A stretch of 63,909 nucleotides of DNA, counting the filler, from Octopus bimaculoides (lineage: Eukaryota): the NCBI RefSeq assembly GCF_001194135.2. It is 4 parts of 4 records of this genome, joined end to end, with 100 filler letters (N's around TTAATTAATTAA, not from the genome) between each part and the next. Parts side by side here need not be neighbours in the genome. Positions count along the whole stretch, not along the records: positions 1 to 30,877 come from NC_068989.1; positions 30,978 to 51,153 come from NC_068991.1; positions 51,254 to 54,350 come from NC_068996.1; positions 54,451 to 63,909 come from NC_069007.1. One strand, given 5' to 3'. Below are positions 10,690 through 63,909 of this stretch, piece by piece; position 1 is the first letter of the stretch, and every line of letters begins with the position of its first letter. The position numbers and the translations under genes are program-made. The notes below the pieces were generated by a model that did no database searches, was not told the DNA's origin, and saw only the letters and a program-made list of their open reading frames with translations.

Positions 10690-10801
10690 GTCGTAAGTCT
10701 TAACCACTACGCCGTATGTTCACGGGCATATGGCCTAGTGGTTAAGAGCGCGGGCTACTAACCCCAACATTCCGAATATGATTTCAGGCAGTGAACTGAA
10801 T

Positions 10802-10875
<74 letters not shown>

Positions 10876-11015
10876 CATCGGAAATATACCTTAGGAATGA
10901 GAAACCAAGTTCGAAATTCCCCTAGAACACCTGATGAAGGCTGGAGGGTATATGAGCCGAAACGTTGTGTTAACAATTAACAAGATGAGGGAAAATATCC
11001 GTCAAATGTAAATAA
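10690..11015 (+). mobile_element. tRNA-headed element (family E) with inverted 5' duplication, (TAA)n spacer and hammerhead-containing 3' part
   Basis: A box tggcctagtgg at 10731, tRNA-like arm to about 10790, (TAA)n at 10805-10870, hammerhead at 10926-10971. The tail is shared with 28073-28142. Confidence 0.75.
10926..10971 (+). ncRNA. Minimal type-I hammerhead ribozyme motif (canonical core)
   Basis: aacac-CTGATGA-a-ggct[ggagggtatatg]agcc-GAAA-cg-T-T-gtgtt: stem I 5 bp, stem II 4 bp, palindromic ACGT stem III. Activity is untested. Confidence 0.75.
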
Positions 11016-11020
11016 TAAAT

Positions 11021-11218
11021 CTTTTCTATTCACAAGGCCCGAACGTTTCGGGGAGGGCGCTTGTCGAGTAGATCGATCCCAGTACGCAACTGGTACTTAA
11101 TTTATCGACCCCGAAAGGATGAAAAGCAAAATCGACGTCGGCGGAATTTGAACTCAGAACGTAAAGACGTGTGAACGTTTCTGCCGGCGTGCAAAAGTTT
11201 CTGCCAGCTCGCCGCCTT
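11021..11218 (-). mobile_element. SINE family A copy (CpG-intact)
   Basis: tcgaccccgaaaggatgaaa...ctgccagctcgccgcctt. Confidence 0.85.
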
Positions 11219-11576
11219 AATATAATATACTAAATGTGAATGTCAATGTGTCAGTGTTTCACCCTTTTTCAACTTTACTCCTGGAGGCCGTAGCCCAACA
11301 TATCATATCATTTTAGAATCAGCATGACTCCGTGAATCCGGAAATTTTTGTATTCCTAACTTTTCATTTCCGTGATTGTTTTCGGCAATATTGTATGTGA
11401 CTTTTTCGACAAATTTTTTTGTAGGATAGCAATTTTTATAATCTAAAGGCCAAATCTATGAGTAAATTAAAAACATACCGGACCGAATCTGGAACTGCAA
11501 TCCTGAAAGTTTGGATTCTTATGGTTTTCCATTGCTGCTATTGTTTTCGGCGATTTTTTCTTACATGATTTTTTAC

Positions 11577-11660
11577 GACGAATATGATCTTCATTGGGAT
11601 ATGACTCTGGAGGAACCAATTGTAACAAATTCTCCAAAACAAGTCAGAGATCTGTTTGCA
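11577..11660 (+). mobile_element. Helitron Rep/helicase coding fragment
   Basis: Translation DEYDLHWDMTLEEPIVTNSPKQVRDLFA resembles the HWDxTLEEAxxxxSPxQLRxLFA segment of Helitron RepHel proteins (recognised by eye). Confidence 0.5.
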
Positions 11661-11780
11661 GATCTTCCCATTCGGGGTCAGTTGCTTAAAAGCTATATAC
11701 TAGCCTAAAAACCGCCCTATCGGGAGTCTTTAAGCTATTATGTATGTATGTATGCATGCATGTATGTATCTCTCTCTCTC

Positions 11781-11840
<60 letters not shown>

Positions 11841-11843
<3 letters not shown>

Positions 11844-12046
11844 CGGAGATGTACTTGCATAGCAAGTGACCTGATCTGAAATCGTGTGCTGGAACGAAAA
11901 CAATTGCAGCGTGGAAGGTGTTTATAAGCCATTTAAGAAACACACAAAAAACCGTTAGATTCACTTCAACATTGAAATTTAGTTTGCCAAAATATTTTCG
12001 TCGCTTTCAGACCACGACCTGCTCACTGACAAAATTCCGTGCTGCA
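11841..12046 (-). mobile_element. Short repeat family F (Penelope pLTR-like) with variant hammerhead at its 5' end
   Basis: High identity to 46968-47237. Abuts (TA)n. Confidence 0.75.
11983..12033 (-). ncRNA. Minimal type-I hammerhead motif with G3-C8 swapped core
   Basis: Reverse strand: tttgtca-GTGAGCA-g-gtcgt[ggtctgaaa]gcgac-GAAA-atat-T-T-tggcaaa. Stem I 7 bp, stem II 5 bp, AATATT palindrome. Confidence 0.65.
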
Positions 12047-12365
12047 TCTCGATCCACGTGGTTACACAGCGAGTTTCTTAATCATGCAACATTCCCTGTA
12101 CCATATAAGAAACGATTCCCAATGTAATTTTATCTCTTGCTATTTTCCTTTCTTCATTTATCATGCTGTACGTTGACGTTTTCCACAAATTCATTACATA
12201 GTGCTCGTTTACTATCTTCTTGGATTTTTTTCTATTTTCGTGTCAAGCATATTTATTCCTATTGTTTACGCCCGTCCATATCACAGAGGACTCGGTTTCT
12301 CTTACATATTTTCTCTTTTAGCTAAGCATATGAATCTTCTTTCTTTTTTGTTTCCACATTCATAC

Positions 12366-12411
<46 letters not shown>

Positions 12412-13787: not shown

Positions 13788-15321
13788 TATATATATATAT
13801 ATATATCACACAGGCTTTTGTTTCTTACAATTACTTCCAGTTTTTCAGAGAATTGAAGTTCTAAATTCAAGCAGAAATAACTTGCCTTCCAACCGTAAAC
13901 TTTGCCGATAATATTCAGACAATGGTTAACATGTGAGAGGTCTCTAATGCATCATTTTACTCCATTTTGTCTTGTACAGATGTATACGAACAATTATCTA
14001 ACTTGTTATATTAGTACGATTTCAGCTAGATATTGAGCATTGTGTCTTTGCAATGATGAGAGCACATTAGTGAAGTCTCTATGCCACAAAACCTGATGGC
14101 CAACAGGGATTAAGAATTTCCTTATTGTTATTTTCTTTATCTGCACATTATTATTATGCTTTTTACTTCGTGTTTGTTTCTTTTAATGAATATACATGGT
14201 CGAGTTTGATGTGTCTTTGAGAAATTTTTTTGATATTGCTCAATACGTCTGTTTGCTTTTCATTTACGTTCAAGTTTGTAATTCTAAATACTTAATCAAT
14301 ATTGTTTTGATTTAAAAACTATTTGACAATTAAGAGTCTGCTTGTTCTACAGCACAGTTCAATGGCTGAAGTTTTGTTTTCTTTCTCTTTTTTGTTATTC
14401 AAAATCAAACTGTTCTGTATTTATTGCTTTATCTGCCCTAGACATCTATTGAATTTTCAATCTTTTTCCCGTTTCCTACTTTTCATTTCTTTTATTAGAA
14501 ACTGCTCAAAGTCTGAATTAATTCATATTTTCATTGTAATAATCCATAAGCGTTGTGTTTGACATATTTCTTTTCTCTAACTGGGGAAAACTGATTCGCT
14601 TTTAGGTATTTTATTTAATTTCTTACCTCACAGTTATATTTATGAAACCTCATTGTGATTGGTTTGTCATATGAAGCTAAATATTTCTAGGTAAAAAGCA
14701 GATCAATGGCACAAAACAAGAATAACATATTTCTGAAGATTATAAATTATTGCTAAGGTTCATAGCAGTTGCTTTTGTATTTGGTTTAATGCTATCCTAA
14801 ATATGTATCATGTCTCTGGTCAGCTGCCGTAATATATTGTTTACAGCTAGCGTGCAATTAGTTCGACAACTGCTGGTTAAAGTGCATTTGCGTTATGAAT
14901 CAGACACGAGTAAATGTTTCCATCTTGAAATGACACATATTTCACTCTCTGATGGCTATATTGCTGGTCATTGATGAATATACAGAAGAGAATTTATGTT
15001 CGGCGTTAACATTTAATACTGCTATGTCCTACTCACCAAGTTTCATTGAAATAGATGAACCCACAATCATATTTTTCCAAGATACTTTTACTAACAAAAA
15101 GCAAACGTATTTTAAAATATGATGTCAATATTGTATGCATCTGTACTTTACCTTTCTATGTGCCCTGATCCAATAGTGGTGCCATAATAATATACGGACC
15201 ATCATGGGTACCTTTTGACTAGCAGGATATAGATAGGAAAAATCTAGCCACTCAACATCACCACCACCACCATCAACAAGAAAAACAGCAACAGCAGCAT
15301 CATGATATTGTATATTATATT

Positions 15322-15495
15322 AAGATAGCGAGCTGACAGATTCATTAGCACGCAGGTCAAAATGTTTAGCGACATTTCTTTTGTTTTCCCTTCTCAGTTC
15401 AAACTCCGCCGAGGTCGACTTTAACTTTCATCCTTTCGGCATCGATAAAATAAGTACCAGACTTACCCCCTTCTCGAAAATTACTGGTCTCGTGC
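15322..15495 (+). mobile_element. SINE family A copy with internal deletion
   Basis: aagatagcgagctgacag...gaggtcgactttaactttcatcctttcggcatcgataaaataagtaccag. Confidence 0.8.
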
Positions 15496-16636: not shown

Positions 16637-16820
16637 GTCGATTTGAAAGGACGAAAGGCTAAGCGGACCTTGGCGGAATTCTGAGTTCAAATTCCACCGA
16701 GGTCGATGTTACCTTCCATTATTTTGATGTCGATAAAATCAGTACCAGTTGACCACTGGAGTCAATGTAATCGTTTGCCACCCTTCTCCGAAATTGCTTT
16801 CCTCTCCTGCCAAGATTTGA
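16637..16820. mobile_element. Fold-back pair of SINE family A fragments
   Basis: Minus-strand fragment followed by a plus-strand fragment. gaccttggcggaatt and aattccaccgaggtc are inverted. Confidence 0.65.
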
Positions 16821-17538
16821 ATCAGTTGTGTATTTAGACTAATAGATTAGAAGTGTTTGTTTTTTGGCTTTGTTTTTTTTTTTGTTTTTGTGTTTTTTTG
16901 GTAAAAATATAGGTCTACGTGATTCCACTTTTTGAATATGCGCATGCGCCACTCCGCTAGCGAAGTCGTCAGTAAATTAGAATCGAAGTGAAAGGCACGT
17001 TGCTTTCAACATAGTTGTATCATTATATGAAGAAACCGACGATGGAGGAGAGATGATTGAATGATAGGAATTTGGCTATAAATGTCATTTTTATATTTAT
17101 CGATGCATAGAGCAAAATTGTCGGAGGTTCTTTGAAATGATTGACAATTCAGAGAATAAAATTAAGAAGAGAACAACAAAAAATATTGGAGAAATATTAT
17201 GAAAGAATAATGTACGTCAATGTTGACAAGACAACATGGATGTCTAGCGTACCCCATAAATCATAAACTCAAACAGGCACACTCACAGTTAAAGAAACAT
17301 TTACGCACACGGACACGTATACGAACAAAAACTCACACGCAGATACACACAAAGACACGATAGGAAAACCGTACAAAAATGTATATACATGAAGCAGCAA
17401 TATACATACATACTTAGAGAAATAGTTTGCCTTATAATACTACAGGCATACGCACACACATGTCACTGGCTTGGTGAAATATTATTACAAAAGTCACAAT
17501 TCATTTACACGATATCACAGAAGGTGCACACGCACACG

Positions 17539-18582: not shown

Positions 18583-18961
18583 GGAGGTGCAATCGCCCAG
18601 TGGTTAGGGTAGCGGACTCGCGGTCATAGGATCACGGTTTCAATTCCCAGACCGGGCGTTGTGAGTGTTTATTGAGCGAAAACACCTAAAGCTCCACGAG
18701 GCTCCGGCAGGGGATGGTGGCGAACCCTGCTGTACTCTTTCACCACAACTTTCTCTAACTCTTGCTTCCTGTTTCTGTTGTGTCTGTAATTCAAAGGGTA
18801 TGCCTTGTCATACTGTGTCACGCTGAATCTCCCCGAGAACTACGTTAAGGGTACACGTGTCTGTGGAGTGCTCAGCCACTTGCACGTTAATTTCACGAGC
18901 AGGCTGTTCCGTTGATCGGATCAACTGGAACCCTCGACCTCGTAAGCGACGGAGTGTCAAC
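18583..18961 (+). mobile_element. tRNA-derived SINE family B variant, running into a gap
   Basis: ggaggtgcaatcgcccagtggttaggg...ggtttcaattcccagaccggg. The 3' part is also seen at 19980-20110. Confidence 0.85.
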
Positions 18962-20355
18962 NNNNNNNNNNNNNNNNNNNNNNNNNNNNNNNNNNNNNNN
19001 NNNNNNNNNNNNNNNNNNNNNNNNNNNNNNNNNNNNNNNNNNNNNNNNNNNNNNNNNNNNNNNNNNNNNNNNNNNNNNNNNNNNNNNNNNNNNNNNNNNN
19101 NNNNNNNNNNNNNNNNNNNNNNNNNNNNNNNNNNNNNNNNNNNNNNNNNNNNNNNNNNNNNNNNNNNNNNNNNNNNNNNNNNNNNNNNNNNNNNNNNNNN
19201 NNNNNNNNNNNNNNNNNNNNNNNNNNNNNNNNNNNNNNNNNNNNNNNNNNNNNNNNNNNNNNNNNNNNNNNNNNNNNNNNNNNNNNNNNNNNNNNNNNNN
19301 NNNNNNNNNNNNNNNNNNNNNNNNNNNNNNNNNNNNNNNNNNNNNNNNNNNNNNNNNNNNNNNNNNNNNNNNNNNNNNNNNNNNNNNNNNNNNNNNNNNN
19401 NNNNNNNNNNNNNNNNNNNNNNNNNNNNNNNNNNNNNNNNNNNNNNNNNNNNNNNNNNNNNNNNNNNNNNNNNNNNNNNNNNNNNNNNNNNNNNNNNNNN
19501 NNNNNNNNNNNNNNNNNNNNNNNNNNNNNNNNNNNNNNNNNNNNNNNNNNNNNNNNNNNNNNNNNNNNNNNNNNNNNNNNNNNNNNNNNNNNNNNNNNNN
19601 NNNNNNNNNNNNNNNNNNNNNNNNATATATATATATATATATATATACATACATGTGTGTGCGTGTGCGTGTTTTCGTGCCTGGTTTTGTCACCCTCATC
19701 ACTGCTTGACAACCAGCGCTATACCATTCACTTTACAGTCATCCCTCGACTATCGCGGGTGTTACGTTCCAAAACTGTCCAGAGAAATAATTAAAATCTA
19801 AAAGAAATACAAATACCTATCGGTCGTAGAAGCCCGCGATATACTGAGAAGTCCGCGATATAAATTTACATATATTAACCAGAAAAGTCCGCAATATACT
19901 GAGTGCGCGATAGATGAAACATCATATGGCAAGGGATTACTGATATTTCATATTGTTCCAGTTCACTCAACTGTGCCTGTACTTCAAAGGACCAGCTGTG
20001 TCACGTTGAATCACCCTGAGAACAACGTTAATGTTACACCTGCCTGTGGACGCTCAGCCTGCTGCACGTTAATTTCACGAGTACGCTTTGACCTTGATCG
20101 GACCATCTAGATATAAATATATACCGGTATTTATATATATTCGGTAGAACACAGAAGATAAAAGGTAGAAAGGAAGACATGAATATAAATTGATTTATTT
20201 TGTTCCCCATGTCTGCGGATGATGAAAAGTGATTCAAAGACTTGAAAGTAGGGTTCTTGGCATATGCACATATACTCTAAGACACACACGGAACTGATAG
20301 CCTGCACTCACACGCTCACAAATAGACACACGCACTCATGCACATACACACGCAT

Positions 20356-20696: not shown

Positions 20697-21669
20697 NNNN
20701 NNNNNNNNNNNNNNNNNNNNNNNNNNNNNNNNNNNNNNNNNNNNNNNNNNNNNNNNNNNNNNNNNNNNNNNNNNNNNNNNNNNNNNNNNNNNNNNNNNNN
20801 NNNNNNNNNNNNNNNNNNNNNNNNNNNNNNNNNNNNNNNNNNNNNNNNNNNNNNNNNNNNNNNNNNNNNNNNNNNNNNNNNNNNNNNNNNNNNNNNNNNN
20901 NNNNNNNNNNNNNNNNNNNNNNNNNNNNNNNNNNNNNNNNNNNNNNNNNNNNNNNNNNNNNNNNNNNNNNNNNNNNNNNNNNNNNNNNNNNNNNNNNNNN
21001 NNNNNNNNNNNNNNNNNNTATATATATATATATATATATGTATATATAGAAGTAAAGATACGGTGTATACTTCCATAAATTTGAGCATATTTGACGACCG
21101 AAAAGATTTGTTATATATGGAACAAAACACATTTTACTTACAATATACATTTTCATATTCCATTAAGTATAACTCAACATTCTCTGATTCATATGAAACG
21201 AAGCGGCTAATGGGAAAATATTGGATGGCTATTTGCAAGTTAGTGAACCATACCACAAAAATGTTAACTCTTTTGAAAACTGTATTTTGGTTTAGATTAA
21301 GGAACTTATTAACCACATAATTAAGGTTCTTAATCAGTTTTTTTTTTCTGACTGCATAAATATCAGCTGACATTATCAGTTCAAGAATAAAGGAATATAG
21401 AAATATCATCCATCAGCGGCAAGAATACAATGCAAACATACAGAAAAATTTGACAGTGTAATACATACATGTAATACATACATACATTCATTCATACATA
21501 CATACATACATAAAAACTACTGCCCTGTGTTTCACATTCCCGTTCGTCGGACTGTTGATATATATATATATATATATATATACATGTGTGTATGTGTATG
21601 TGTGTGTGTGTATGTGTGCGTGTGTGTGTTTGTGTGTGTGTATGTGTGTGTGTATGTGTGTGTGTAAAG

Positions 21670-23080: not shown

Positions 23081-24596
23081 TACATGTGTATCTATATATG
23101 TATGAGACTGCGTGCTTATGTGTGTGTCTGTACGCAACTGATATGGGTATACACTTTTTAATGTAAATAAAAATAATGTGAATAATAAATAAAAGCAAGT
23201 TCTTCAACAAAAGGGAGCATCCCGCTTTTTTAAGCCTTTTCGTGGTGTTCTGTTTCTACAGATTAAAAGCAAAACCTGATAATTTGCGTGTTTATGCTGA
23301 TGAATATGAAATGGATTCAACCTATATGTACAATGGGGTCGTGTAACTCAGCTTACCTTGGCAGCAGCCTAACTGTAATTCAGTTCAGCGCATTTATCTT
23401 TGATAAAACGAAATAATAAATGCCAAGAATTACTTTGTTTTATTGTTTGTTGGTTATAATGAATTGCTAGATAAACGGATGCCGGTAATTGAAGATGAGT
23501 TGGTAGGAAAGATAACAGTTCTTGCAGTGATATGATGAGATGAGATGTTTCGTTACAAAAGAATACAAAAGTTGGAAGAAGAAATAGTAACAGAGATATT
23601 TGTTGTTAAGGAATATAAACTAAGGGGAATATTTTAGCATTCTATTTAAAACAAACCCTCTAAAGTTTCCAATACGGTTTCAGGGTCAACCGTCGGGCGA
23701 TCTTCCTATATTTTTAATTGTTATGCGAACTTTCTTCCATTTCGATTATATATTATGGTTTTCGCCATTGTAGATAATACAGTTAACTCACCCACGCATG
23801 CAGCCTTTTTTTTTATTCGAAGCCAACGAAAGCGTTTCTACGTGTTACGTTGACCTGTAAAAATAACAGCTAAAATTTGCATAAATTACATATCAAAATA
23901 TTAAGTACACAAAGACATAAAAAGTGGATACTTTGGATAATATACGCAGACTATTTAGTTGAAAAGGTGGAATGCTCACAGTTTGAAAGCTGCTGTCATA
24001 GGTCACTTTCTTCTGAACTGACCAAGGATTAAGCAACAACAACAGCTGCAGCTGCAGCAGCAGCAACAATAATAACATTTTGGTCACTCCTTACCTCCCC
24101 ACATTATATCTTCTCGCTTTCCTGAATGATGTTACATCTGTCATTTCAGGAACGGGTTTAATACCTGCGTACATACATGTATAGCTGCACTCACACATAG
24201 AGGCACTCACACACACATACACACACATACATATATATGCCTAATTTCCAATTGAAGACTTTGGAAGTTTTTCTTCTATCTCATTAATTGTACCATAAAC
24301 ATTTTTGCTTCTTTGAGATTAATATTTCGTTTTCCGGTTTTTTAACCTTCCACATTTTCTATATACTTCTTTCTCATTTCTTCTATCATTCAGTTTTGAA
24401 TTCGTTGTGCCATGTAGGCTGTGTCTGATGAATGTGCCGAGATATCAAACGTATTATAAAACATTGCTTTGCAAAGTAACAACCTATAAAAACATGTATT
24501 GTGTCTATTAGATGATATTTATCTCTCACCAGATAGAGTAATTATTTTGGTGATCATATTATCACAGAACAATACCATATATATATATATACCGGA

Positions 24597-24790
24597 GTAA
24601 GCACATAAAATGTGAAAGAAGGTGGAAAAAAGAGTACTCAAATACCAGAGGTAGAGTAATATGCTTTATTTAAAAGCAGCAGAAATATAACAAAAGACTG
24701 TTACTCGGAGTTTCACGTTCCCGTTCATCGGACATGTCGGATGAACGGGAACGTGAAACTCCGAGTAACAGTCTTTTCTTATATTTTTCT
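24597..24790. mobile_element. Short repeat family G ending in a head-to-head inverted duplication of a hammerhead-like motif
   Basis: About 54-bp inverted arms centred at 24734/24735. A related diverged copy is at 21514-21557. Confidence 0.65.
24699..24734 (-). ncRNA. Minimal type-I hammerhead-like motif with CCGAUGA core
   Basis: Reverse strand: tgt-CCGATGA-acg[ggaa]cgt-GAAA-ct[ccg]ag-T-A-aca. Only 3 bp of stem I remain. Confidence 0.5.
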
Positions 24791-26083
24791 TNNNNNNNNN
24801 NNNNNNNNNNNNNNNNNNNNNNNNNNNNNNNNNNNNNNNNNNNNNNNNNNNNNNNNNNNNNNNNNNNNNNNNNNNNNNNNNNNNNNNNNNNNNNNNNNNN
24901 NNNNNNNNNNNNNNNNNNNNNNNNNTGTGTGTGTGTGTATGTGTGTGTGTGTATGTGTGTGTGTGTGTGTGTCTATATAATTGATGATGTGTAGACATCA
25001 CAACATATATCTACAATATTCAAGCGCTCAATTATGAGTACGTCGCTAAAATCCAATCCCTTATCACATTTCGATACATATTTACGGAGTTACATGTACG
25101 TAACCGACGGGAGAAAACGATAGTTGAAAGTAACATATTTCGAAAAATAACAGATGCAGTAAAACACAAACTTTATAGACGATTCATAATTCAATTGCTT
25201 ATGTGTTTTTGCGCGCATGCGTATGAATGTGGGTGAGAGGAAATGTGCTTACATGAGGTTGCATTTACAGTTATGCGACTCACAAATTCTTTCGGTGCAA
25301 TTGAATGAGACCTGAATAGTGAGTGAAACGTTAATGAGCACGGAATGGAAGCTCGTATTAATAAAAATATTATGTTCATTTCCAGATAATTTTGTCATCA
25401 TTCAACTTCTCAATTTCTGCCTGGCTATTCTTAGGATTTGCGCAATGACTTAAGCTTTAGTTTGAAAAGACTATGATCAAAGTTTTGTGCGAAGTAGTTA
25501 TATTTCTAGCACATCAGACGAGCACTTTGACACTTCATCGTTGATTCGACTACGCCAAGTATTTCGATATAGCGTGTACTAAATGGCACCATGCAAAGCC
25601 CCACCTTCGAGAGACAAAATTATAAATAGTGTTAATAGATAACTTCACGCTGGGAATAGTGGTAATGATAGCAATATTAGTTGTAATAGTAACAGGAGAG
25701 ACGATGTTATGGGAAGCGCTTTGAATGAACTTGACGAGCATCATGATGCATAAAGCCATTCTAAATATAAATCTATATCACAGTAATATTTAATCCGTTT
25801 TTATGTATTTTTCACACACATAGCCCAGCAGGATACATATACAGAAATACAAACCATGCGCGCACGCACACATAAAGACATATATACAAATGCACCCGTA
25901 TGTATGTGAATAATAATTTTCTATTAGGCTCGGTTAATAATCTTCCTACGTTGCATATCGTTATTATTTGTTATATTTGTTATTGATGCATATCTCTGTA
26001 TACGTGTGTGTATATATGCAAGTGGGTGAGTATGCTTGTGTGATGTGTGTGTACGTGTGCTTGACTGAGGGTGTGTGTGTGAA

Positions 26084-43547: not shown

Positions 43548-44012
43548 AGGCGGCGAGCTGGCAGAATCGTTAGCATGCCAGGCAATAATGCTTAGCAGCA
43601 TTTTGTCTGTCTTTATGTTCTGAGTTCAAATTCCGCTGAGGCCGACTTTGCCTTTCACTCTTTTCAGGGTTGACAAAATAAGTACCAGCTGAGCGCTGGG
43701 GATCGATGTAATCGACTTGGCCCCTCCTTTGAAGCTGTTGGCCTTGTGCCAAAATTTGAAGCCAATATTATTATTATTATTATTATTATCATTATTCAAG
43801 GCAGCGAGCCAACAGAACCATTTGCATGCCAATCAAAATGCTTTGCAGCATTTCATCCAATTTTGCATCCTGAGTTCAAATTCTGCCAAGGTCAACTTAG
43901 CCTTTCATCCCTTCAGGGTCGATAAAATAAGTACCAGTCGAGCACTGGGGGTTGATGTAATCAACTTATCCCCTTCCCTGAAATTGCTGGCCTTGCGCCA
44001 AACTTTGAAACC

Positions 44013-44013
<1 letters not shown>
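43548..44013 (+). mobile_element. Two head-to-tail SINE family A copies separated by (ATT)n
   Basis: Copies start at 43548 and 43798. Each ends ...tttgaa(g/a)cca(a/g)tattattatt. Confidence 0.85.
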
Positions 44014-44877: not shown

Positions 44878-46967
44878 GTATGTAAATATATATAGATATA
44901 TATATATATATATATATCTATGTATAAAACACATTCATACACATTTGTTCCTGCTCATGTATATTATATATAAATAATTTGTATAATTGTTCATACATAC
45001 AATCACTGTTTCTAACATGCTGTTCCATGTACAATGATGATGTTGATTTCAAAGTTGTTTTTGGTTTCATGTGTTTCTGATAAAGTTTTTCAAGTTGTTT
45101 TTTTTTTCTTTTTTTTTTTTTTTTTTTTTTNNNNNNNNNNNNNNNNNNNNNNNNNNNNNNNNNNNNNNNNNNNNNNNNNNNNNNNNNNNNNNNNNNNNNN
45201 NNNNNNNNNNNNNNNNNNNNNNNNNNNNNNNNNNNNNNNNNNNNNNNNNNNNNNNNNNNNNNNNNNNNNNNNNNNNNNNNNNNNNNNNNNNNNNNNNNNN
45301 NNNNNNNNNNNNNNNNNNNNNNNNNNNNNNNNNNNNNNNNNNNNNNNNNNNNNNNNNNNNNNNNNNNNNNNNNNNNNNNNNNNNNNNNNNNNNNNNNNNN
45401 NNNNNNNNNNNNNNNNNNNNNNNNNNNNNNNNNNNNNNNNNNNNNNNNNNNNNNNNNNNNNNNNNNNNNNNNNNNNNNNNNNNNNNNNNNNNNNNNNNNN
45501 NNNNNNNNNNNNNNNNNNNNNNNNNNNNNNNNNNNNNNNNNNNNNNNNNNNNNNNNNNNNNNNNNNNNNNNNNNNNNNNNNNNNNNNNNNNNNAAAATAC
45601 ACCTAATTATTATGTCTCCTCCTTGCTGCTGATGTTTTTGTATTGTCTCACCTTCCAAGACACACCTGACCTTTATTTTATTTTTATTTTATTTCCTTAT
45701 TTTTTTTATGTTTATAAATTTTGTTTATCTACTTTCAAAATGTTTTTTTTTCTTTTTATTTCTGTGATCTGGTTTTGATTGACCTTATTTCTTCAGTTCA
45801 GTTGGTGTACAAACCAGTCTTTGGATTTGTTTGGTAAATACAATATTGAATAAAGGTGCTCTGAAGTACAACATCTCACCAAAGATCGGGCTCAATAGAG
45901 GGTTCCACACTCCACTCCAATATCCAGTCTAGTACAGTGCGGGATATCAGCCTCAGGATAGGCTAGTGTGCGGAATACAAGTCAAGTACATATATATATA
46001 GATATATATATATATATATATATATGCCTTGGAATAGCAGAGTGCTCCTTTAATAATTGACTGAAATATAATTAATTATTCTTTGGTCAATTAAAAGGTG
46101 TAACTATCACACTGCTATTTGAACACTTTGCTAGCCAGGTTCCTGCATGAAGTGCTACTGGTGTGATCACTTGGATTTTACCTATTCTCTCAATTTTTAC
46201 ACACATACATACATACATACATATTAATGTACTTCTTTAAAATATATCATGTTCACTTTGAGCACATTACCAGTAAGTATGTGTGAGTGTGAATGTGTTT
46301 GAATCCAAGTTATTTTAATCCTTTCAACATTTTATATTTTTAACGAGTAAACTGCTGTCTCCATGTTTGAATTTAATATTTCAATATAATCAAGATTTTT
46401 TATGGGTTTAGTAAAATACGATACATATTATCTGGTATATGCAACTAAGGCAGTGTTTAATTAAAATATCCATCTATGTATCATAATAAATGCATAGCCA
46501 CTGTCAGTAGACCAGTTCATGCAAATGCCTCAGTAACTGGCCTATCAATGGTGTATATACATTATCTATGATATATATATATCTATGGTTATATAATATT
46601 ATCTTAGTGTCAACCAGCTGCAGTCTAATGTCATCTTCCATTTTATAACATGATTTTGATATAAAAATTTCCATCTAAATACAAACACATTGATACTGGC
46701 TACATCAGGTAGGCTAGCATTAGCAGGGTTTATTATTCTTTGAAGTTGTATTAATTGCTATTGTTACGTTTGTATGAAGGATGACAATATATAAACTGGT
46801 TTGATAAAACTATATTTGGCTGAATAGCAGACATAATGCAAAGTAGACATGAAGTATAACTGTATTCCAAATATAACTTTTACCATTTTGTTGATAACAA
46901 GTATATCATATTGCTGATGAGTCAAATTATTTCCTAAATTTTTTTAAGCAAATGTTAATTTTTATTA

Positions 46968-47237
46968 TTACGGAGATGTACTTACATAGCAAGTGACCTG
47001 ATCTGAGATTGTGTGCTGGAACGAAAAGAATTGCAGCGTGGAAGGTGTTTATAAACCATTTAAAATAACCACACAAAGGCCGTTAGATTCACTTCAGCAC
47101 GGAATTTTGTCAGTGAACAGGTCGCGGTCTCAAAGCACCGAAATTATTTTGGCAAATTAAATTTAAATGTTGAAGTGAATCTAACGGTTTTTGTGTGTTA
47201 TTTTAAATGGCTTATAAACACCTTACACACTGCAATT
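46968..47237. mobile_element. Family F fold-back copy: antisense 3' part (46968-47096) joined to a sense 5' part carrying a degenerate G3-C8 hammerhead (47106-47156)
   Basis: Both arms align to 11841-12046 in opposite orientations. Confidence 0.8.
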
Positions 47238-48179
47238 ATTTAATTTTCATTGTTCAAAACTTAAGATCGAGTGTGTGTGCGTGCATGTGTGCAATTCTTA
47301 TATAAATCAAACATTATTTCCTTATTCCATTTTAAATTCTAATGAAACGTTTCTTGCAAAATTGGGAATATTGCAAATTGGGAATTTTTTTTTTTTTTTT
47401 TTTCTAAGGAGGAAGGGCAATGTGTTGTGACTATGACCCTTTCCAGGGTCTCCATGACTAGTGAAAAGTAAAGTAAAAAGAGGAAGTTATCATCAGACCA
47501 CAGTTCTGGCTTGAATACTTTCTACAATGTGTATTCCACAGACGACACCCCAGGACCAGGTGATAGTATTGAATTGGGTAACAGCTTAAGTACAGCGAAG
47601 GAACATAGTGTCCTGATGGTTAGGGTGTTGCATTCGTGGCCATAAGATCAGAGTTTTGATCCCTAGACCATGTGGTGCATTGGGTTTTTGAAAAAAAAAA
47701 AAAAAAAGCACTTCATTCTAGTTTTCTTCCATATAAATGAGTTCCAACAATATATGGGCAATTAACTCTGCAATGGCCTTGCAGGGGGTGAAGTGGGGTG
47801 GGAGTTGCTTGTGATCTTAGTCACTTACATGCCATGGGAACTGGATTCTCCCATTTTACGAGTTACATGGCTAGTGTATGATTAACTGTAGCATATAACA
47901 GGGTACTGTCCTTGATTCTCAAGGCTTTGGGCTGACCCAAGACTATGATAAAAAAAACAAAAAAAAACAAAAAAAAAACACCCAGGTTATTGCACTGTAG
48001 GATTGAACCCAAAACAACGTATCTGAAAAAATGCAAACTTGTTAACCATACAGCATTGCCTGTGGTCAAGGATTAGTCTATTCAGTGAGCTGTTATGTGT
48101 AATCATTAGCTATGACATTCTGATGTATTGATGCCACCCCTCCCCTCTCTTGCTCACTGTCACTTCAACAGTATATGTA

Positions 48180-48634: not shown

Positions 48635-50235
48635 GCCATCGAGCTGGCAGAATCATTGAAATCAATTTATCATTGAAATCAATTTATCCTCTCCTCTAAA
48701 ATTTCAGACCTTGTGTCAAAATTAGAAAGTATTATATAATTCCGCTTGTCACTTCCATTGTAATTTATTATCAAGGTAATTAAGACGACTGATTGGCATA
48801 ATCATTAGCACGAGAGACACGGTGCTCAACCGAATTTCCTCTTGCTTTTTTTTCGTTAAGGTTGCCTTTGCCTTTCATCTTTACAGGGTCAATAAAATGG
48901 GGGTTGATGTAATTGACTAATCCTCTCCCACAAAATTTCAGGCCTTGTGACCCTAATAGCATAAAAAGGTGGCAGAATTGTTAGCATATCAGATAAAATG
49001 CTTAGTGACATTTCTTCAGCTTTATGTTTTGAGTTCAAATTCTACCAAGGTTGACTTTACCTCTTTTCCTTTTGGGATCAATAAAATAAGTACCAGTTGA
49101 GCACCTGGAGTGAGTGTCATTAACTTGCCCCTTCCCCAAATATTTCAGACCTTATGCCTATAACAGACAGTATTATTATTATTATTATTAATATTATTTA
49201 GCAGCGATTCCACTAATTATAATTACTATACTAAAGAGGAGTGATAAGTCACCTGGTCTATTGCTGCTGGCCCTTTTTTTTTTTTTTGAAGGATTCGGTT
49301 AGTTGTAAAGACATTTGGATATTTGTCTTACTGTCCATGAGTGTGTTTGAGCCCTCTCTACCCCCATTCCCCACTATTTACTGCATTTTTTATTTTTTAT
49401 GATAACACACCCATTACTTCAGTCACCTTCTAACCAATTGAACTGGCTTATTTTTCATTTTATTTTATTCATTTTTTGGTTTTTGTTTTCCTCTACCTCC
49501 ACCCCGTTATTTCTTTATTCTTCTACTCCTCTGTTCTTCGTATTCTATCTTTGACTTCATGTGTCTCTTTGTTTTGTTCTTCTGTTGTCTTGTCTTCTTC
49601 TTCACCGCTTCAAGACACCAACACATCTTTTTACAATCAGTGTTCGATTGCTGAATGCTGTTCCCAAGGGTTTATTAATCTGCAACCAAATCACACAACA
49701 CACCACTCTCACCACCCCACCTCCCAACTTTGTTGTTGTTGTTGTTGTTAATATTAAGTTCTAATATTGTTAATCTTCAATTTATAGACTTTATCATCTT
49801 TATTATTATTATTATCATTCTTATTAATCTTTACATTCTGAGTTCAAATTCCGCCAAGGTCAACTTTGCTTGTCATCCTTTTGTGGGTTGATAAAATAAA
49901 GTACCAGTTGAGCACTGGGGTTGATGTAATTAACTAGCTCCCCCCCTCAAAATTTCAGGCCTTGTGCCTATAGTAGAAAGGATTATTATTATTATTATTA
50001 TTATTAAGGCAGTCAGCTGGCAGAATTGTTAGCATGCTAGGCAAAATGCTTAGCAGCTTCACNNNNNNNNNNAAATGCTTAGCAGCTTCACGTTCTGAGT
50101 TCAAATTCTGCCAGGGTCAACTTTGCCTTTCATCCTTTCAGGGTCGATGAAATAAGTACCAGTTAAATACTGGGGTCGATGTAATCAACTCATCTCCACC
50201 TCCAAAATGCTGCCCTTGTGGCAAAATTTGAAGCT
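48635..50235 (+). mobile_element. Cluster of about five same-orientation, CpG-decayed SINE family A copies (about 48635, 48785, 48963, 49825, 50006)
   Basis: Repeated ctggcagaat...tgagttcaaatt...gataaaataagtaccag blocks. Confidence 0.8.
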
Positions 50236-50695
50236 ATTATTATTAGTACCATTATTAATTTAACAATAATTTTTGTCTATATTTTTTTTCGTGTTGAATA
50301 TTTATTAATTGTTAGAATTTCATTTTTTTGTCCCTTTTGACTATATTTATCCCCTCCTCCTCCTCATATATACACACACATACACTACACTCTCCTCCTG
50401 CCACCACCACACAATACACCACCCTTATATATATATATTTTTTTTTTTACTTTGTCTTATTTCTCTCCCTCCTGGAAACCTTAATAATTGTTGTCTAACA
50501 GTTGTATTTTTTTATGAGACACGTTTTTAAAATTACAAAATAAAAAAATAAAAAACAGAAAAAAACCAAAAGCGACATGTTTACCACGGCTTATTCTTGC
50601 TATTGGTGTGCTGGGAAAATGAAGGACGGAGTACGTGTTCATTCTTTTGTGACGTATGCGCACTCACTCGCACAAACACACTGAGCAAACACCCA

Positions 50696-51509: not shown

Positions 51510-51534
51510 CAATAATGATGATGAGGATGATAAT

Positions 51535-51925
51535 TGTTTCAAATTTTGCCACAAGGGCAGCAATTTGACAAGAGAGGATTAGTCGATTCATCGACCCCAG
51601 TGTTCAACTGGTACATAATTTATCAACCCCAAAAGGATGAAAGGCAAAGTCAACCTTGGTGAATTTGAACTCAGAACATAAAGACAAACAAAATACCACT
51701 AAGCATTTTGCTTGGCATGCTAATGATTCTGCCAGCTCACTGCCTTTTGAAGGAAAGGAATTAGTCAATAACATTGACCCCAGTATTTGACTGGTACTTT
51801 ATTTTATTGTTCTTGAAAAATGAAAAGCAAAGATTTAAACTCAGCAGGATTTGAACTCAGGACATAAAGCCAGCAGGGAATGCCACTAAGCATTTTGTCC
51901 ACTGTGCCAACAATTATACTAGCCT

Positions 51926-51975
<50 letters not shown>

Positions 51976-52420
51976 TAATAATAAAGCCTGAAATTTTGGT
52001 GGAGAGGACTAGTTGATTGCATTGACCTCAGTGTTTGACTGGTACTTAATTTATTGACCCTGAAAGGATGAAAGATAAAGTCAACCTTGGTGGAATTTGA
52101 ACTCAAAACATGAAGGCAGACGAAATGCTGTTAACCATTTCGTCTGACATGCTAAGTTCTGCCAGCTTGCCACCTTAACAATAACAATAATAATAATAAT
52201 AATAATCATAATAAAATAACAATAATAATAATAATAATAATATTAATAATTCTTTCTAACAAATTTTGGCACAAGGCCAGCAACTTTGGAGTAAGAGTTA
52301 GTTGATCTCATCAGCCCTAGTACTTGATTGGTACTTTATTTTATTGACCACCCAACAAAAGGATAAAAATGTAAAGTTGTGCTTGATGAGAATTGAACTC
52401 AGCACATAAAGAAGATTTTT
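51535..52420 (-). mobile_element. Train of four minus-strand SINE family A copies, partly separated by (TAA)n
   Basis: Copies at about 51535-51748, 51760-51930, 51985-52178 and 52260-52420. Confidence 0.85.
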
Positions 52421-53097: not shown

Positions 53098-53218
53098 GTC
53101 TATGAACAGCGACGTGAAAGAGTGCTTGAACTTTTAAACAAACAAGAAGAACTCAAACAGGAGTTGACCTCAGCTAAGGACCGTCTCATGATTGAACAAG
53201 CATCTTGGAACTTTGACT
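53098..53218 (+). CDS. Internal coding exon (121 nt, phase 0 to 1) of an unidentified gene; coiled-coil VYEQRRERVLELLNKQEELKQELTSAKDRLMIEQASWNFD
   Basis: Long polypyrimidine tract plus tacAG acceptor, GTAAGT donor at 53219, an open frame and heptad-like non-repetitive peptide. Confidence 0.8.
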
Positions 53219-54649: not shown

Positions 54650-55355
54650 TGTGTGTGTTCAATAAGTATCCGGACTGTTGCCATAGTAACGAAGCTAAAA
54701 CACCGAAAATGAAGCTGCTTGGCAGAGATTGATCTTGATCTCTACTGCTCATGCGCACTAAGTTTTAACGTTCTGGCTCACTTCCGCTCTTTACAGCAGT
54801 GCTTGGAAATAACGTGTGTAACGTGTGATCGTCGCATTGACCATGACAGACAAAGTTGAGCAGAGAATCTGCATCAAATTTTGCCAAAAGATTGGCGATA
54901 CCTGTGCAGAGGCCTATGCGAAGATTTCAAAAAGTTTTCATCATTCTCGACACATTCAAAGAGGTCTTGTGCAACTAAAACCTGAGTGTTTTTTTGGTCA
55001 GCTGAAAGCAGTTTTGGCGCAAACTTGGCAGACATGTGTCTCATACCCAAATCTTCAATGATAATGGATTGAACTGAACTGTAAATAATGTACACATCCT
55101 NNNNNNNNNNNNNNNNNNNNNNNNNNNNNNNNNNNNNNNNNNNNNNNNNNNNNNNNNNNNNNNNNNNNNNNNNNNNNNNNNNNNNNNNNNNNNNNNNNNN
55201 NNNNNNNNNNNNNNNNNNNNNNNNNNNNNNNNNNNNNNNNNNNNNNNNNNNNNNNNNNNNNNNNNNNNNNNNNNNNNNNNNNNNNNNCATGGTCAATGCG
55301 ACGATCACACGCTACACCCCTTCCTTCTAAGCACTGCTGTAAACAGCGGAAGTGA
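54650..55355. mobile_element. Mariner-family fold-back deletion derivative (two inverted 5' halves)
   Basis: Plus strand: TIR-like gtgttcaataagtatccggac and MTDKVEQRICIKFCQKIGDT. Minus strand: SVQSIIIEDLGMRHMSAKFAPKLLSADQK...ENFLKS. 54779-54845 is inverted relative to 55288-55355. Confidence 0.85.
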
Positions 55356-58254: not shown

Positions 58255-58569
58255 TTTATTATCATTGCTGTACCTACTTACTTTATATTTATCTATTTAA
58301 TATATATTTTCACTGGAATATCTTTCAGAATCATGTTTCTTACCTGTTTGTTGCAAAGTCGAAATGTTTCCTCTCGTACAACTGGAGACAGCAATAAATT
58401 TACAACAACATATCTCGAACTGGATTACGTGTATTATATATATATCTGCCTTATGTACGCACTTGTGTGTGTGTGCGTGTGTGTGCGCATGATAATGAGT
58501 AAATGTGTGAATGAGTGTGTGTGCATATAATACCGGTTTTTGAGAAGGATTCTTGATACAGTCACACCA

Positions 58570-58880
58570 TTTGAAGAAAGATTTTCTTTTAAATTAGAAA
58601 TTATAAGTTATATGAAAATATCTTACGAAAATAGACTGAGGTGAGCCTTATGGATGGACTGGACGTTTTTGTATTATGCAAGCGCCTTCAATGTTTACAG
58701 CTTTTCAAATACACGTGTTATGGGGATAACTCCATCGCACGTGTGTCTAAAAAGCTTTAAACATCAAAAACGCTTAACTCAATAAAAAAAAACTTACTTC
58801 GAAAATGTTCGGGTCATTTTGTTATTTTGAAAATATTTACATAATTAACAATTTTTTATTTAAAAGAATCTTTCTTCAAA
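58570..58880. mobile_element. MITE-like element with about 23-bp terminal inverted repeats
   Basis: tttgaagaaagattttcttttaaat (58570-58594) versus atttaaaagaatctttcttcaaa (58858-58880), with one 2-nt indel. TA follows the right end. Confidence 0.6.
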
Positions 58881-59339
58881 TATATAGATATAAGTATAAA
58901 TAAATATCTATATATATGCATTTGAATATATACACATCAATCCATATGTGTGTGTGTGAGTGAATGTGTGTGTGCGTGCGTGTGTGTGTACGTATGTATG
59001 TATATGCGTTGTAAGTATTTAAACAAAGAACAAACATAAGTAGAAGGCCAAGCAAATGGTCGAGTAGATATATATTATTTCCACAGCATATATTATATGT
59101 AGCCGTTGGTTATGGCCTGGCCGGTCAGAATGTTGACATTGGTGCCACATCTATTATTGCTTATAGAAATATGGGCGAAACACCAGACAAGCTGACCAGA
59201 GACATATAACCTCTTTACTAATGGCGGTAAGAATACAGACATGGGTCAGCAAGATCATGAAAGGAAGGCTCTGAAATGAAAATCTCAGAATTGAAAAACC
59301 CCTTCTGTGCGAGATTCCAGTTGTGTCGGAAAATGGTTC

Positions 59340-59620
59340 GTTTATATATTATTTCCGTTCACTTGTCAGCAAGCGAGCAAGTCCATGTCTTCAACATGAA
59401 TTTTCTCTCCTGGAGGTACAACCAAACAGTTCGCTTTTGGAATTTAAGAAAGACACCGGGTCAAGCGAATTTTTTAGGATACTTGCCGTCTCGACCAAAC
59501 AAAATTCGCACCGTCTGCATGCAAACACATTGGAGCAACGGAGGTCTCCTTTAAGTTGTGATTACAGGTTCACTTTTAGGATTCCAGAGAGGCGCAACAT
59601 CACATCTTTGCCCAACTACA
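59340..59620 (-). mobile_element. Penelope-like element ORF C-terminus (GIY-YIG region), decayed
   Basis: CRRCEFCLVETASILKNSLDPVSFLNSKSELFGC (59519-59418) fits the PLE CxLCLxEKxxI...LNxxSELxxxC pattern. Confidence 0.7.
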
Positions 59621-59659
59621 TGTGACGTTTAAAAAAAGAGAAAAAGTCATACAGGATAA

Positions 59660-59815
59660 AGGATGTTCTTGAAACAGCTTGGATCATACCTCAATGGGAG
59701 CAGACAATGCAAACTTTGCTTGGACGAGAGAGCTAGAATCCTAAACTATTCGCTTGATCAGGGACCCTTTTAAATTTGAAAAGTAAATTGTTTATTTGAT
59801 GCCTTCTAGACATAT
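59660..59815 (+). mobile_element. Second Penelope-like ORF C-terminus, opposite strand
   Basis: GSYLNGSRQCKLCLDERARILNYSLDQGP, then after a frameshift LNLKSKLF. Confidence 0.7.
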
Positions 59816-60335: not shown

Positions 60336-60873
60336 GCACAACACCTATTAAAATATAATAACTACACATATGCCGTTTAATACGAATCAAAATATATGTC
60401 GGTGTATGTATACTACTCATATATGTATGTATATATATATATATATATNNNNNNNNNNNNNNNNNNNNNNNNNNNNNNNNNNNNNNNNNNNNNNNNNNNN
60501 NNNNNNNNNNNNNNNNNNNNNNNNNNNNNNNNNNNNNNNNNNNNNNNNNNNNNNNNNNNNNNNNNNNNNNNNNNNNNNNNNNNNNNNNNNNNNNNNNNNN
60601 NNNNNNNNNNNNNNNNNNNNNNNNNNNNNNNNNNNNNNNNNNNNNNNNNNNNNNNNNNNNNNNNNNNNNNNNNNNNNNNNNNNNNNNNNNNNNNNNNNNN
60701 NNNNNNNNNNNNNNNNNNNNNNNNNNNNNNNNNNNNNNNNNNNNNNNNNNNNNNNNNNNNNNNNNNNNNNNNNNNNNNNNNNNNNNNNNNNNNNNNNNNN
60801 NNNNNNNNNNNNNNNNNNNNNNNNNNNNNNNNNNNNNNNNNNNNNNNNNATATATATATATATATATATATAT

Positions 60874-61035
60874 ACGACGAGCTTCTTTCGGTTTCTTTCT
60901 CCCAAATCCACTTACAGAGCTTTGGTCAGCCCGAGTCTATAGTGAATGACACTTGCCCAAGGTGCCACAAAGTAGGACAGAACCCGGGACCACGTGATTG
61001 AAAAGCGAACATCTTACCACGTCTGCGCTTGTGCC
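60874..61035 (-). mobile_element. 5' half of SINE family D
   Basis: Reverse complement of the 36520-36680 region. Confidence 0.8.
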
Positions 61036-61091
61036 TATAAATAGATAGATGGGTGGGTAAGTAAAGTTAAGAGTTAGACAGACAGACAGAC

Positions 61092-61149
<58 letters not shown>

Positions 61150-62244
61150 AATATCTCTATAATAAAACTTATTGACACCCATGCCAGCTACGTTATTGTG
61201 TCTGACTATGTATTTGAGTATGTGCCTATGTTCTCGTGTACGTGAGTACGTGCATGCGCATGTGTATGTGTGTATGGGCGTGTTTGTGTATGCGTGTAAA
61301 AGCAGAACACATTTTCTTTCAGGCACTTTCTACATTTAAAGCACAGCTCGGGACTTTTCACAACAACATCTGATATTTATCTTTATAACAAACTCTGGTG
61401 TTTAACTTTAAACGAATTCTCAGCCATTTGGAGTGAGAAGTTAACAAAAAGCTTTCGCGACGTTTCGTAATATTGTCTTCGTCATTAAGCATTTTCTTTT
61501 TCTATTTACAACCATCAAAAGTGAAATGTTCTTGAGACGTATGTTCTGGTTACATCCATGACACAGAAGTTATAAACCACCATGCGCAGAACTGTACCAA
61601 TCATACAGATTCAACTTTAATATCTAAAAATGGGAAGGTCACAGAGTACATTTACAACTCAAGACGATGCAGGAGAGTTTGATAATGAAGTATTTAGTTA
61701 CCTAATCTTGTATGTATGTATGTATGTATGTNNNNNNNNNNNNNNNNNNNNNNNNNNNNNNNNNNNNNNNNNNNNNNNNNNNNNNNNNNNNNNNNNNNNN
61801 NNNNNNNNNNNNNNNNNNNNNNNNNNNNNNNNNNNNNNNNNNNNNNNNNNNNNNNNNNNNNNNNNNNNNNNNNNNNNNNNNNNNNNNNNNNNNNNNNNNN
61901 NNNNNNNNNNNNNNNNNNNNNNNNNNNNNNNNNNNNNNNNNNNNNNNNNNNNNNNNNNNNNNNNNNNNNNNNNNNNNNNNNNNNNNNNNNNNNNNNNNNN
62001 NNNNNNNNNNNNNNNNNNNNNNNNNNNNNNNNNNNNNNNNNNNNNNNNNNNNNNNNNNNNNNNNNNNNNNNNNNNNNNNNNNNNNNNNNNNNNNNNNNNN
62101 NNNNNNNNNNNNNNNNNNNNNNNNNNNNNNNNNNNNNNNNNNNNNNNNNNNNNNNNNNNNNNNNNNNNNNNNNNNNNNNNNNNNNNNNNNNNNNNNNNNN
62201 NNNNNNNNNNNNNNNNNNNNNNNNNNNNNNNNNNNNNNNNNNNN

Positions 62245-62558
62245 TGGTTTCCAAATTTTGGCACAAGGCCAGCAAATTCTGTGAAGGGATAAGTCGACTG
62301 CATCGATCTCAGTGATCAACTGGAACTAATTTGATTGACCCCGAAATGATAAACAGCAAAGTTGACCTCAGCGAAATTTGATCTCAGAACGTAAAGACGG
62401 ACGAAATGCCTCGAAGCGTTTTCCTCGGCGTGCTAACGATTTTGCCATCTCTCCGCCTTTACAGGATTAAAGATTGGTTTCATATTTTGGTACAAGGCCA
62501 GCAATTTCGGAGTAAGTCGATTGTATCGATCCTAGTGCTCAACTGGAGTTTTATTTAA
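62245..62558 (-). mobile_element. One full and one 5'-truncated SINE family A copy
   Basis: Copies at 62245-62459 and 62470-62558. Confidence 0.8.
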
Positions 62559-62573
62559 TGGGCCTGGAACCAA

Positions 62574-62633
62574 CCCCGTGAACGAGGAATTCCCGGTAGG
62601 CGCGGGTCATCAGCCCGCGTCGATCACGTTCCT
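62574..62633 (+). pseudogene. Short 18S rRNA fragment (3' major domain, just upstream of the TTGTACACACCGCCC motif)
   Basis: ccccgtgaacgaggaattcccggtaggcgcgggtcatcagcccgcgtcgatcacgt matches the conserved eukaryotic GAACGAGGAATTCCCAGTAAGCGCGAGTCATCAGCTCGCGTTGATTACGT. Confidence 0.85.
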
Positions 62634-63639
62634 TTCTTCCACAGTAGATTTTTTACACAAAACTAACGTCTTCACAGCGAACGAGAACTGAAAACCTTGA
62701 TTGACGGAAGAGGTCACAAAAGTTTTAAAATATAGAAACAATAGTAACTGAGAGGTTAGAGGAGGGAGTGAGGTGGGGATCGTCATCTCATGATGACTTC
62801 GAATTTCATGGATTTAAAATAAAATATTGCAAAACAGAATGATGTTATTCTTTTCTATGGTGTCTCTGTCTATCGCTCTCTCACTCTCTCTCTTTCTCAG
62901 TAAGAATATATGTGTGTGTGTGTGTGTATGTATATATATATGTAGTGGCTTCATGCAGGTATGGCGTGGATTCGATCCTCGATCGCCAAATTTCACTTAC
63001 CAGCGCTTTTCTCACAGTGAGACAATAGTTTTTCTGTAAGTGACATCAGTTACATTAACCAGATCCCTTCACTAAGCAGAATAATGTCTTTGCCACTTGA
63101 CCCTTCTAACCTCTTCTATTTCACCAAAAGCTAGAATAGCGATAACAGGTACCATCAACGAAATCTATTGTTCTCAACAATATGTCTATCTTTCTAACTA
63201 GTTTTGGATAGTTATAAATACTAGAATTTGGCAAAGTAAAGTTAGTTAGTGAACGGAGACGACTAGAGTCATGGCCACAAGCAAACAGCTACTAAAGACA
63301 AACGGCCAGAAGGAGAAAGAAGGTTACAACCAGCCAACTATTAGACACAACTACCCTCGACTCTATAACTTTCACTAGCTTACTTTCTTTTCTCTTACAT
63401 CATGCTATCACTATCTATGGTTTACTACTAAAAAAGAACGTGTACACACATACCGGCCGAAATTAACTTTTTTTTACTTCGCATGCTTTTCCATTTACTA
63501 ATTATACATATGAACCTGTCGTAAATATTTCTTTACGACTTCGATCACTGTTCTTCGTTCACCTTGCACATCAGCAACAACAACACCCGGTACAATCGCT
63601 AACTGCCGACTCGAACATATATCGTAATACAAACCGTCA

Positions 63640-63909
63640 CACTGGCAACCAACACTTTAACAAACCAATTCCATTACCGTTACAATTGGTGACCCTCGAC
63701 TTCAACGAAGAACTAACATATTCGCCATGATAGATCGCTAGCCACTACACATTCTTTATTTTCTCTCCTCGTTTCTTTCTGTGTTCCTTTCTGTGGAAGA
63801 ACGTAGGTTCGAAACGTTAAAGATTTTTTCACTTCCCGAGCGTAAAACTAATACATTTGATTGTTGTCTGCACCACCTGTCTTCGTCTTCTTTTTTCGTA
63901 TCAATGTAT
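63640..63909 (+). mobile_element. Probable Penelope-like 3' end / pLTR-like repeat (family H)
   Basis: Degenerate QHFN (63650-63661) and IG-TL..NE.L (63685-63714) motifs precede a hammerhead-like fold. Confidence 0.45.
63787..63822 (+). ncRNA. Minimal type-I hammerhead-like motif with CUGUGGA core
   Basis: cttt-CTGTGGA-a-gaac[gtag]gttc-GAAA-cg-T-T-aaag: stem I 4 bp, stem II 4 bp, ACGT palindrome. Confidence 0.6.

Follow-up and report, generated by a model that had tools for sequence, protein, structure and literature searches.

Why do several unrelated repeats in an octopus genome each carry a hammerhead-shaped RNA motif, and what kind of element left them there? We addressed this in a 63,909-nucleotide stretch of Octopus bimaculoides DNA (the window; assembly GCF_001194135.2), joined from parts of four records, which is AT-rich, laden with microsatellites and includes 5,834 N. 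Four repeat families in the window, F1 to F4, each hold a minimal hammerhead with a different core. We conclude that these motifs are most probably hammerhead-shaped 3'-end marks of several independent families of Penelope-like elements (PLEs), one of which, F2, has a family-wide G3–C8 core pair with the fold predicted to be kept.

The order stem I, core, stem II, GAAA, palindromic stem III, UH and stem I' is present in all four motifs. F1 (10926-10971, plus strand), a minimal type I hammerhead detected by both descriptors described below, has a 5-bp stem I, the core CUGAUGA, an extra A, a 4-bp stem II and GAA-ACGU-U, with ACGU as stem III. F2 (11983-12033, minus strand) has a 7-bp stem I, the core GUGAGCA with G3 at 12026 and C8 at 12021, an extra G, a stem II of four Watson–Crick pairs and one wobble, and GAA-AAUAUU-U; cleavage is predicted between 11990 and 11989. 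F3 (24699-24734, minus strand) combines a 3-bp stem I, the core CCGAUGA, a 3-bp stem II with a GGAA loop, and GAA-ACUCCGAGU-A. F4 (63787-63822, plus strand), again a descriptor match and the sole copy of its family in the window, has a 4-bp stem I, the core CUGUGGA (A6U), an extra A, a 4-bp stem II and GAA-ACGU-U. Only F1 keeps the canonical core CUGANGA; F2 departs from it by G3–C8, F3 by C4 and F4 by U6. Positions 3 and 8 nonetheless form a Watson–Crick pair in every motif (C–G in F1, F3 and F4; G–C in F2). F1 and F4 share the commonest published form, GAAA-CG-UU, and fit the published minimal-hammerhead consensus of metazoan PLEs, F4 save for A6U.

The positions, order and cores of these motifs had been given by an initial annotation of the window and were borne out. 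A strict descriptor, composed post hoc with the motifs already in view, demanded a self-complementary stem III and a Watson–Crick 3–8 pair, both published PLE features, and tolerated one core change; it found five sites at four loci (F1, F2, both arms of an F3 fold-back, and F4) against a shuffle mean of 0.02. Across 400 shuffles a single site appeared in eight and never more than one. The 208-bp F2 unit gave no match to the same descriptor across 235,552 shuffles.

F2, chosen because its core is the most unusual, was profiled genome-wide by aligning contigs from sequencing runs on it. Three DNA runs yielded 6212, 8489 and 7697 matching contigs, which pile on 11842-12049 (minus strand), and in two runs the summed depth, a measure distinct from true copy number, was 12,000-38,000 times that of single-copy flank. 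F2 is a unit of ~208 bp present in the order of 10^4 copies. The window's copy has six private letters, at which 91-99% of the family depth differs, and three of them fall within the 51 hammerhead positions (position 7, one stem II base and one loop base). Position 7 is A in 98% of the family depth, giving the majority core GUGAACA, which is also the core of a second copy in the window (47113-47119). Hence, the four cores of the initial annotation stand as read in the window, but its GUGAGCA is private to the copy at 11983-12033. In stem II the majority letter at 12014 (91-94%) restores five Watson–Crick pairs.

Among the F2 variants listed for the three DNA runs, none reaches 4% at G3, U4, G5, A6, C8, A9, G12 to A15.1, U16.1 or U17. 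Since no such core variant is listed and the second copy also reads GUGAACA, G3–C8 is the family state rather than a copying error, and the swap holds across the F2 family. The sole balanced polymorphism in stem I, at 11987 (41-55%), places either G or A opposite U, so that pairing is kept both ways.

The ends of F2 are of the PLE type. Loose contig ends cluster at two 3' ends, 11840-41 and 11897-98, ~57 nt apart and beside (TA)n or AT-rich flanks, and copies share a common 5' boundary at 12038-12049. Depth falls ~500-fold just beyond 12051, where loose ends agree poorly (0.53), as expected of unrelated flanks. Depth worth ~15 copies runs on to ~12087, showing that a minority of copies are longer (window 12050-12105). 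Nine of the 11 opposite-strand joints listed end at 12038-12048, indicative of fold-backs, and the second copy is one of these (46966-47241, plus strand). Its inverted arm (46969-47108) has the long 3' end and its sense arm (47095-47241) the short one; its hammerhead (47106-47156) carries private changes in stems II and III. Depth runs without a step across the predicted cleavage site, 48-60 nt downstream of the common 5' boundary. Inserted F2 copies therefore come mainly from uncleaved RNA, and the suggestion that these elements are processed by their hammerheads is unsupported.

F3 also forms a fold-back (24592-24791, minus strand), defined by alignment, descriptor and a by-eye match to Hydra-clade hammerheads. 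Its left arm, on the minus strand, contains the hammerhead with U4C followed by a ~105-nt tail reaching (TA)n; the right arm (24735-24791, plus strand) has the core CGGAUGA and is interrupted by a gap of N. The arms are 96% complementary over 24683-24734 and 24735-24786. A second, diverged copy (21515-21553, minus strand) has the core CCGACGA and a non-palindromic stem III and is flanked by microsatellites. Position 4 is C in this copy and in the left arm, that is, at both loci, and G in the right arm; U4C is thus probably the F3 family state. Compared by eye, the hammerheads of Hydra-2_aMil and Hydra-2_aJap (File S2 of PMC8557442) agree with F3 in stem I, in the ACUC-N-GAGU stem III and in A17, and F3 is likely to be the end of a Hydra-clade PLE. 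Inverted 5'-truncated copies with a one-sided 3' tail occur in F2, both genome-wide and at 46966-47241, and in the F3 fold-back; none was seen for F4, whose 3' end lies beyond the window. The 3' ends of F2 and F3 alike adjoin (TA)n or AT-rich flanks.

A decayed reading-frame end (63575-63730, plus strand; from translation) lies upstream of F4. It may resemble a PLE endonuclease C terminus, and it is the one candidate open reading frame (ORF) lying by a hammerhead end, none being seen for F1 to F3. With this decayed frame ahead of it, F4 is more likely to be an autonomous element cut short, probably a 5'-truncated copy of an ORF-bearing PLE. Its A6U change rests on one copy and could mislead, since the window's F2 copy alone has three private changes in its hammerhead. 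A second frame-like remnant forms an old fold-back at 59340-59815, identified by alignment, with arms 72-75% alike; read across frameshifts it looks by eye like the endonuclease end of Hydra-1_Obim (PMC8557442, available part). No hammerhead was found beside it. Both stretches had been called PLE ORF remnants, and both do contain decayed, frame-like sequence, with neither confirmed by any search.

F1 is less complete. Its body, approximately 10873-11018 (plus strand) from sequence and alignment, lies between (TAA)n (10804-10872) on the 5' side and a repeat resembling a short interspersed nuclear element (SINE) on the 3' side. A second copy (28063-28135, plus strand; from alignment) is 5'-truncated, lacks the hammerhead and extends further 3' than the first, a weak hint from two copies that F1 also has two ends. 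Upstream, at 10698-10800, sequence and alignment outline a tRNA-like head in a head-to-head hairpin, with an A-box-like word at 10731-10741; ARAGORN and Rfam gave no tRNA match in this head. The hairpin itself (10698-10747, 80%) involves only the tRNA-like head, ~180 nt upstream of F1 with the (TAA)n between. That the head belongs to F1 is unproven from this one locus; F1 may be a SINE that has a tRNA-like head and depends on a PLE for its movement, a class for which we found no published report. The fold-back duplications proposed for three families thus stand for F2 and F3, whereas the F1 hairpin lies in a head whose link to F1 is conjectural. As a separate observation, 10698-10800 consists of two tRNA-like A-box sequences placed head-to-head that diverge after ~20 bases, and could be a bidirectional RNA polymerase III head or the 5' inversion of a short SINE.

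These features are familiar from PLEs. A 2014 survey of metazoan PLEs described many unrelated, variable minimal-hammerhead families per genome, mostly as single truncated copies; several such families in one animal genome are therefore the published norm, and the window does not reveal a new Penelope-dependent system. The surveyed hammerheads, like the motifs here apart from their variant cores, run stem I, CUGANGA, an extra base, a stem II with G10.1–C11.1, GAAA, a palindromic stem III and UH, and like the families here they have U-rich sequence upstream and some opposite-strand pairs. As described by Craig et al. (2021; PMC8557442, available part), Hydra-clade PLEs including Hydra-1_Obim insert at (TA)n, carry a hammerhead near the 3' end and leave inverted 5'-truncated copies, and PLE insertions occur as inverted fold-back pairs. 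The Hydra-1_Obim hammerhead differs from each of F1 to F4. The link to PLEs drawn by the initial annotation is upheld by each family in its own way: F1 and F4 through the consensus, F3 through letters shared with Hydra hammerheads, and F2 through its two 3' ends, its fold-backs and its AT-rich or (TA)n flanks.

What sets F2 apart is its core. None of the 56 motifs aligned in the 2014 survey has G3–C8, C4 or U6, in a set whose core was fixed by the search descriptors and which included no cephalopod; that survey did report natural 3–8 covariation, to U3–A8, in Schistosoma. The available File S2 of the Hydra-clade paper has the canonical core in 34 of 34 rows and G3–C8 in none, again with a largely fixed search core, whereas F3 has U4C (PMC8557442). 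Natural core variants treated by Perreault et al. (2011; PMC3088659) comprise U3–A8 covariation, an active U4C in a viroid and a weakly active A6C in a phage; G3–C8 and A6U are not named among them in the available part. For G3–C8 we found only engineered variants in the literature, our coverage being incomplete and an earlier natural report possible. Octopus PLE hammerheads were not found in the literature beyond the Hydra-1_Obim paper and the others cited here, and the accessible portion of a 2026 O. vulgaris repeat annotation makes no mention of ribozymes. The elements are of a known kind, and the natural G3–C8 variant is likely new. The proposal that the families sample different core solutions holds family-wide for F2 and probably for F3 (two of two loci); for F4 it concerns a single copy.

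The closest mechanistic parallel is PAc, a Poseidon element of Anolis (Frangieh et al. 2024; PMC11167929, available part). There, two start sites for reverse transcription generate a 3' tail, both strands are cut at AT-rich DNA, and uncleaved RNA is the main substrate for insertion in vitro. Two such start sites explain a fold-back like that of F2 with one long and one short 3' end. Moreover, the C3G/G8C double mutant of PAc partly rescues hammerhead cleavage. In PAc, an autonomous element, the pair was engineered as a rescue, whereas in F2, a short repeat with a ~57-nt tail, G3–C8 occurs naturally as the majority form. Because the 2'-OH of position 8 serves as the hammerhead general acid, and because C3G/G8C partly rescues a PLE hammerhead, G3–C8 is compatible with activity. 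By this analogy we predict, with only slightly better than even confidence, that the F2 hammerhead cleaves RNA.

A mechanism for F2 can be outlined on these grounds. A PLE protein would nick AT-rich or (TA)n DNA on both strands, reverse transcription would begin at two neighbouring RNA sites to give the long and short 3' ends, and extension of both nicks would produce the fold-back. The template would be mostly uncleaved RNA, because inserted F2 copies retain the whole hammerhead. To cut, the hammerhead would have either to dimerize through its palindromic stem III or to be assisted by protein, and it would not define the insertion ends. The F2 master element would have become fixed for the G3–C8 swap as a compensatory change. 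All four families had been proposed to be non-autonomous. Because F3 resembles the end of a Hydra-clade PLE and F4 follows a decayed ORF, that description is supported for F2 only, which is likely a non-autonomous passenger.

Several results weigh against reading the motifs as marks of PLE families. The genome-wide profile was built on F2 and does not extend to F1, F3 or F4. For neither F1 nor F2 did an autonomous partner come to light. Protein searches gave no match with the 63575-63730 remnant and were blank or uninformative with that at 59340-59815, leaving its endonuclease likeness unconfirmed. Rfam hammerhead models matched none of F1 to F4 at E≤10 in four 101-base scans; a whole-window Rfam scan returned microsatellite-driven noise among the 150 of 276 rows listed. 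In predicted ensembles with 25-nt flanks, stem I is retained in F2 only (0.4-0.9), stem II of F2 in its exact register has a pair probability of 0.07, and no stem of F1, F3 or F4 exceeds 0.01. Finally, covariation and excess core conservation, the tests proposed with the initial annotation, gave no support when run on F2. Two-sided stem changes are absent among its copies, and the core shows no excess conservation: 0 of its 12 positions vary, against 16 of the other 196 in the unit (Fisher P=0.6; 23 of 40 listed rows used, those at or above 4% only in a run guessed to be RNA being dropped, bar one). This test has little power because the family is young and C>T and G>A changes, many of them at CpG, make up most of its variation.

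Pattern scans for further copies found none in metagenome contigs or prokaryote genomes, and for F1, F3 and F4 none in viral contigs. Seven viral-contig matches to a short F2 pattern were set aside as chance, similarity ending with the pattern itself. CpG decay is lower in stem II of F2 (2-7%) than outside it (5-21%); we rejected this as a signal of selection, because decay after insertion is neutral and depth is uneven along the unit.

The alternative that survives best is that the families descend from PLEs while F2, F3 and F4, those with variant cores, carry dead hammerheads; these would persist because the PLE protein recognizes neighbouring RNA or the fold and mobility does not require cleavage. 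We regard this as a plausible minority position. In the available part of PMC11167929 hammerhead mutants leave in vitro insertion unaffected, and Naiads multiply without hammerheads (PMC8557442, available part). F2 insertions retain an uncleaved motif, published changes at position 6 reduce activity, eight of nine Xenopus retrozyme dimers failed to cleave in the portion of that published work available, and A6U of F4 could be decay of the kind seen in the window's F2 copy. However, a dead motif has no reason to swap positions 3 and 8 into a new Watson–Crick pair with stems I, II and III intact, and U4C is a known active natural variant (PMC3088659, available part).

An unlikely alternative, in line with the initial annotation, is that in all four families the hammerhead cuts and circularizes the RNA of non-autonomous, retrozyme-like units, which PLE enzymes then copy. 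Animal non-LTR (long terminal repeat) retrozymes, for which mobilization by PLEs or descent from them has been proposed, are short hammerhead units without coding sequence (PMC7229834; 10.64898/2026.07.22.740005; available parts), and F2 is likewise a short, high-copy unit. One head-to-tail F2 joint (12043 back to 11841) is present, as one contig in each of two runs, and 344 F2 contigs matched in the run guessed to be RNA, which we do not take as a sign of transcription. Against this, head-to-tail accounts for one of the 15 F2 joints listed, and a tandem or circular route is possible but minor. According to the available sources, retrozymes form tandem arrays, have mostly canonical hammerheads and yield circular RNAs, whereas F2 is dispersed and prone to fold-backs, with a minimal variant hammerhead. 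No tandem array of F1 to F4 units lies within the window, F2 lacks a depth step at its cleavage site and has its 5' boundary upstream of the hammerhead, F4 follows a decayed ORF end, and F3 resembles the end of a Hydra-clade PLE. That the motifs are chance look-alikes in ordinary SINEs, long interspersed nuclear element (LINE) tails or miniature inverted-repeat transposable elements (MITEs) is very improbable, and for F2 and F3 largely refuted: a loose descriptor showed only a weak excess (8 loci versus 1-7 in 12 block-wise dinucleotide shuffles), Rfam matches are absent and, in predictions that include the flanks, three of the four motifs fold poorly, but the strict-descriptor excess, the letter-level Hydra match of F3 and the PLE-type ends of F2 speak against it.

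The only host exon identified, at 53098-53214 (plus strand), encodes part of the kinesin KIF26B, with 98% identity to Octopus vulgaris over 41 residues; introns or flanks of KIF26B may account for much of the window. Alignment revealed an older SINE-like family of more than 12 copies, 70-85% alike, often clustered and in both orientations (846-1018, 11031-11230, 15310-15460, 16678-16827, 43548-44013, 48858-50243, 51527-52412 and 62245-62546), which is probably the octopus OK SINE. Three two-copy repeat pairs, 81-87% alike, are likely other SINE families (2397-2589 with 18585-18776, 18813-18929 with 19996-20111, and 36531-36676 with 60875-61020). A long imperfect palindrome at 58569-58881 (68% over ~320 bases) is MITE-like, and a degenerate ~33-base tandem repeat at 33104-33416, with open frames on both strands, is probably a minisatellite. 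A frame at 54874-55100 (minus strand) reads like a mariner-type transposase fragment.

That many hammerhead-bearing PLE families can inhabit one animal genome is already published; PLE hammerheads cleave poorly in vitro and are dispensable for insertion in the one reconstituted system. In this setting a natural, family-wide G3–C8 is a clean compensatory change, and F2 is a short, abundant substrate for single- and double-mutant tests. If F2 cleaves, selection has acted on active-site geometry within a mobile element. Searches with descriptors fixed on CUGANGA, and Rfam, miss these motifs. We suggest tentatively, at somewhat less than even confidence, that octopus PLE-derived hammerheads include fixed, working forms invisible to CUGANGA searches: G3–C8 in the ~10^4 copies of F2, a family-wide U4C and perhaps A6U. 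If true, the double change at positions 3 and 8 would be direct evidence of selection on the active fold of a PLE hammerhead, and genome surveys would have overlooked a layer of such ribozymes.

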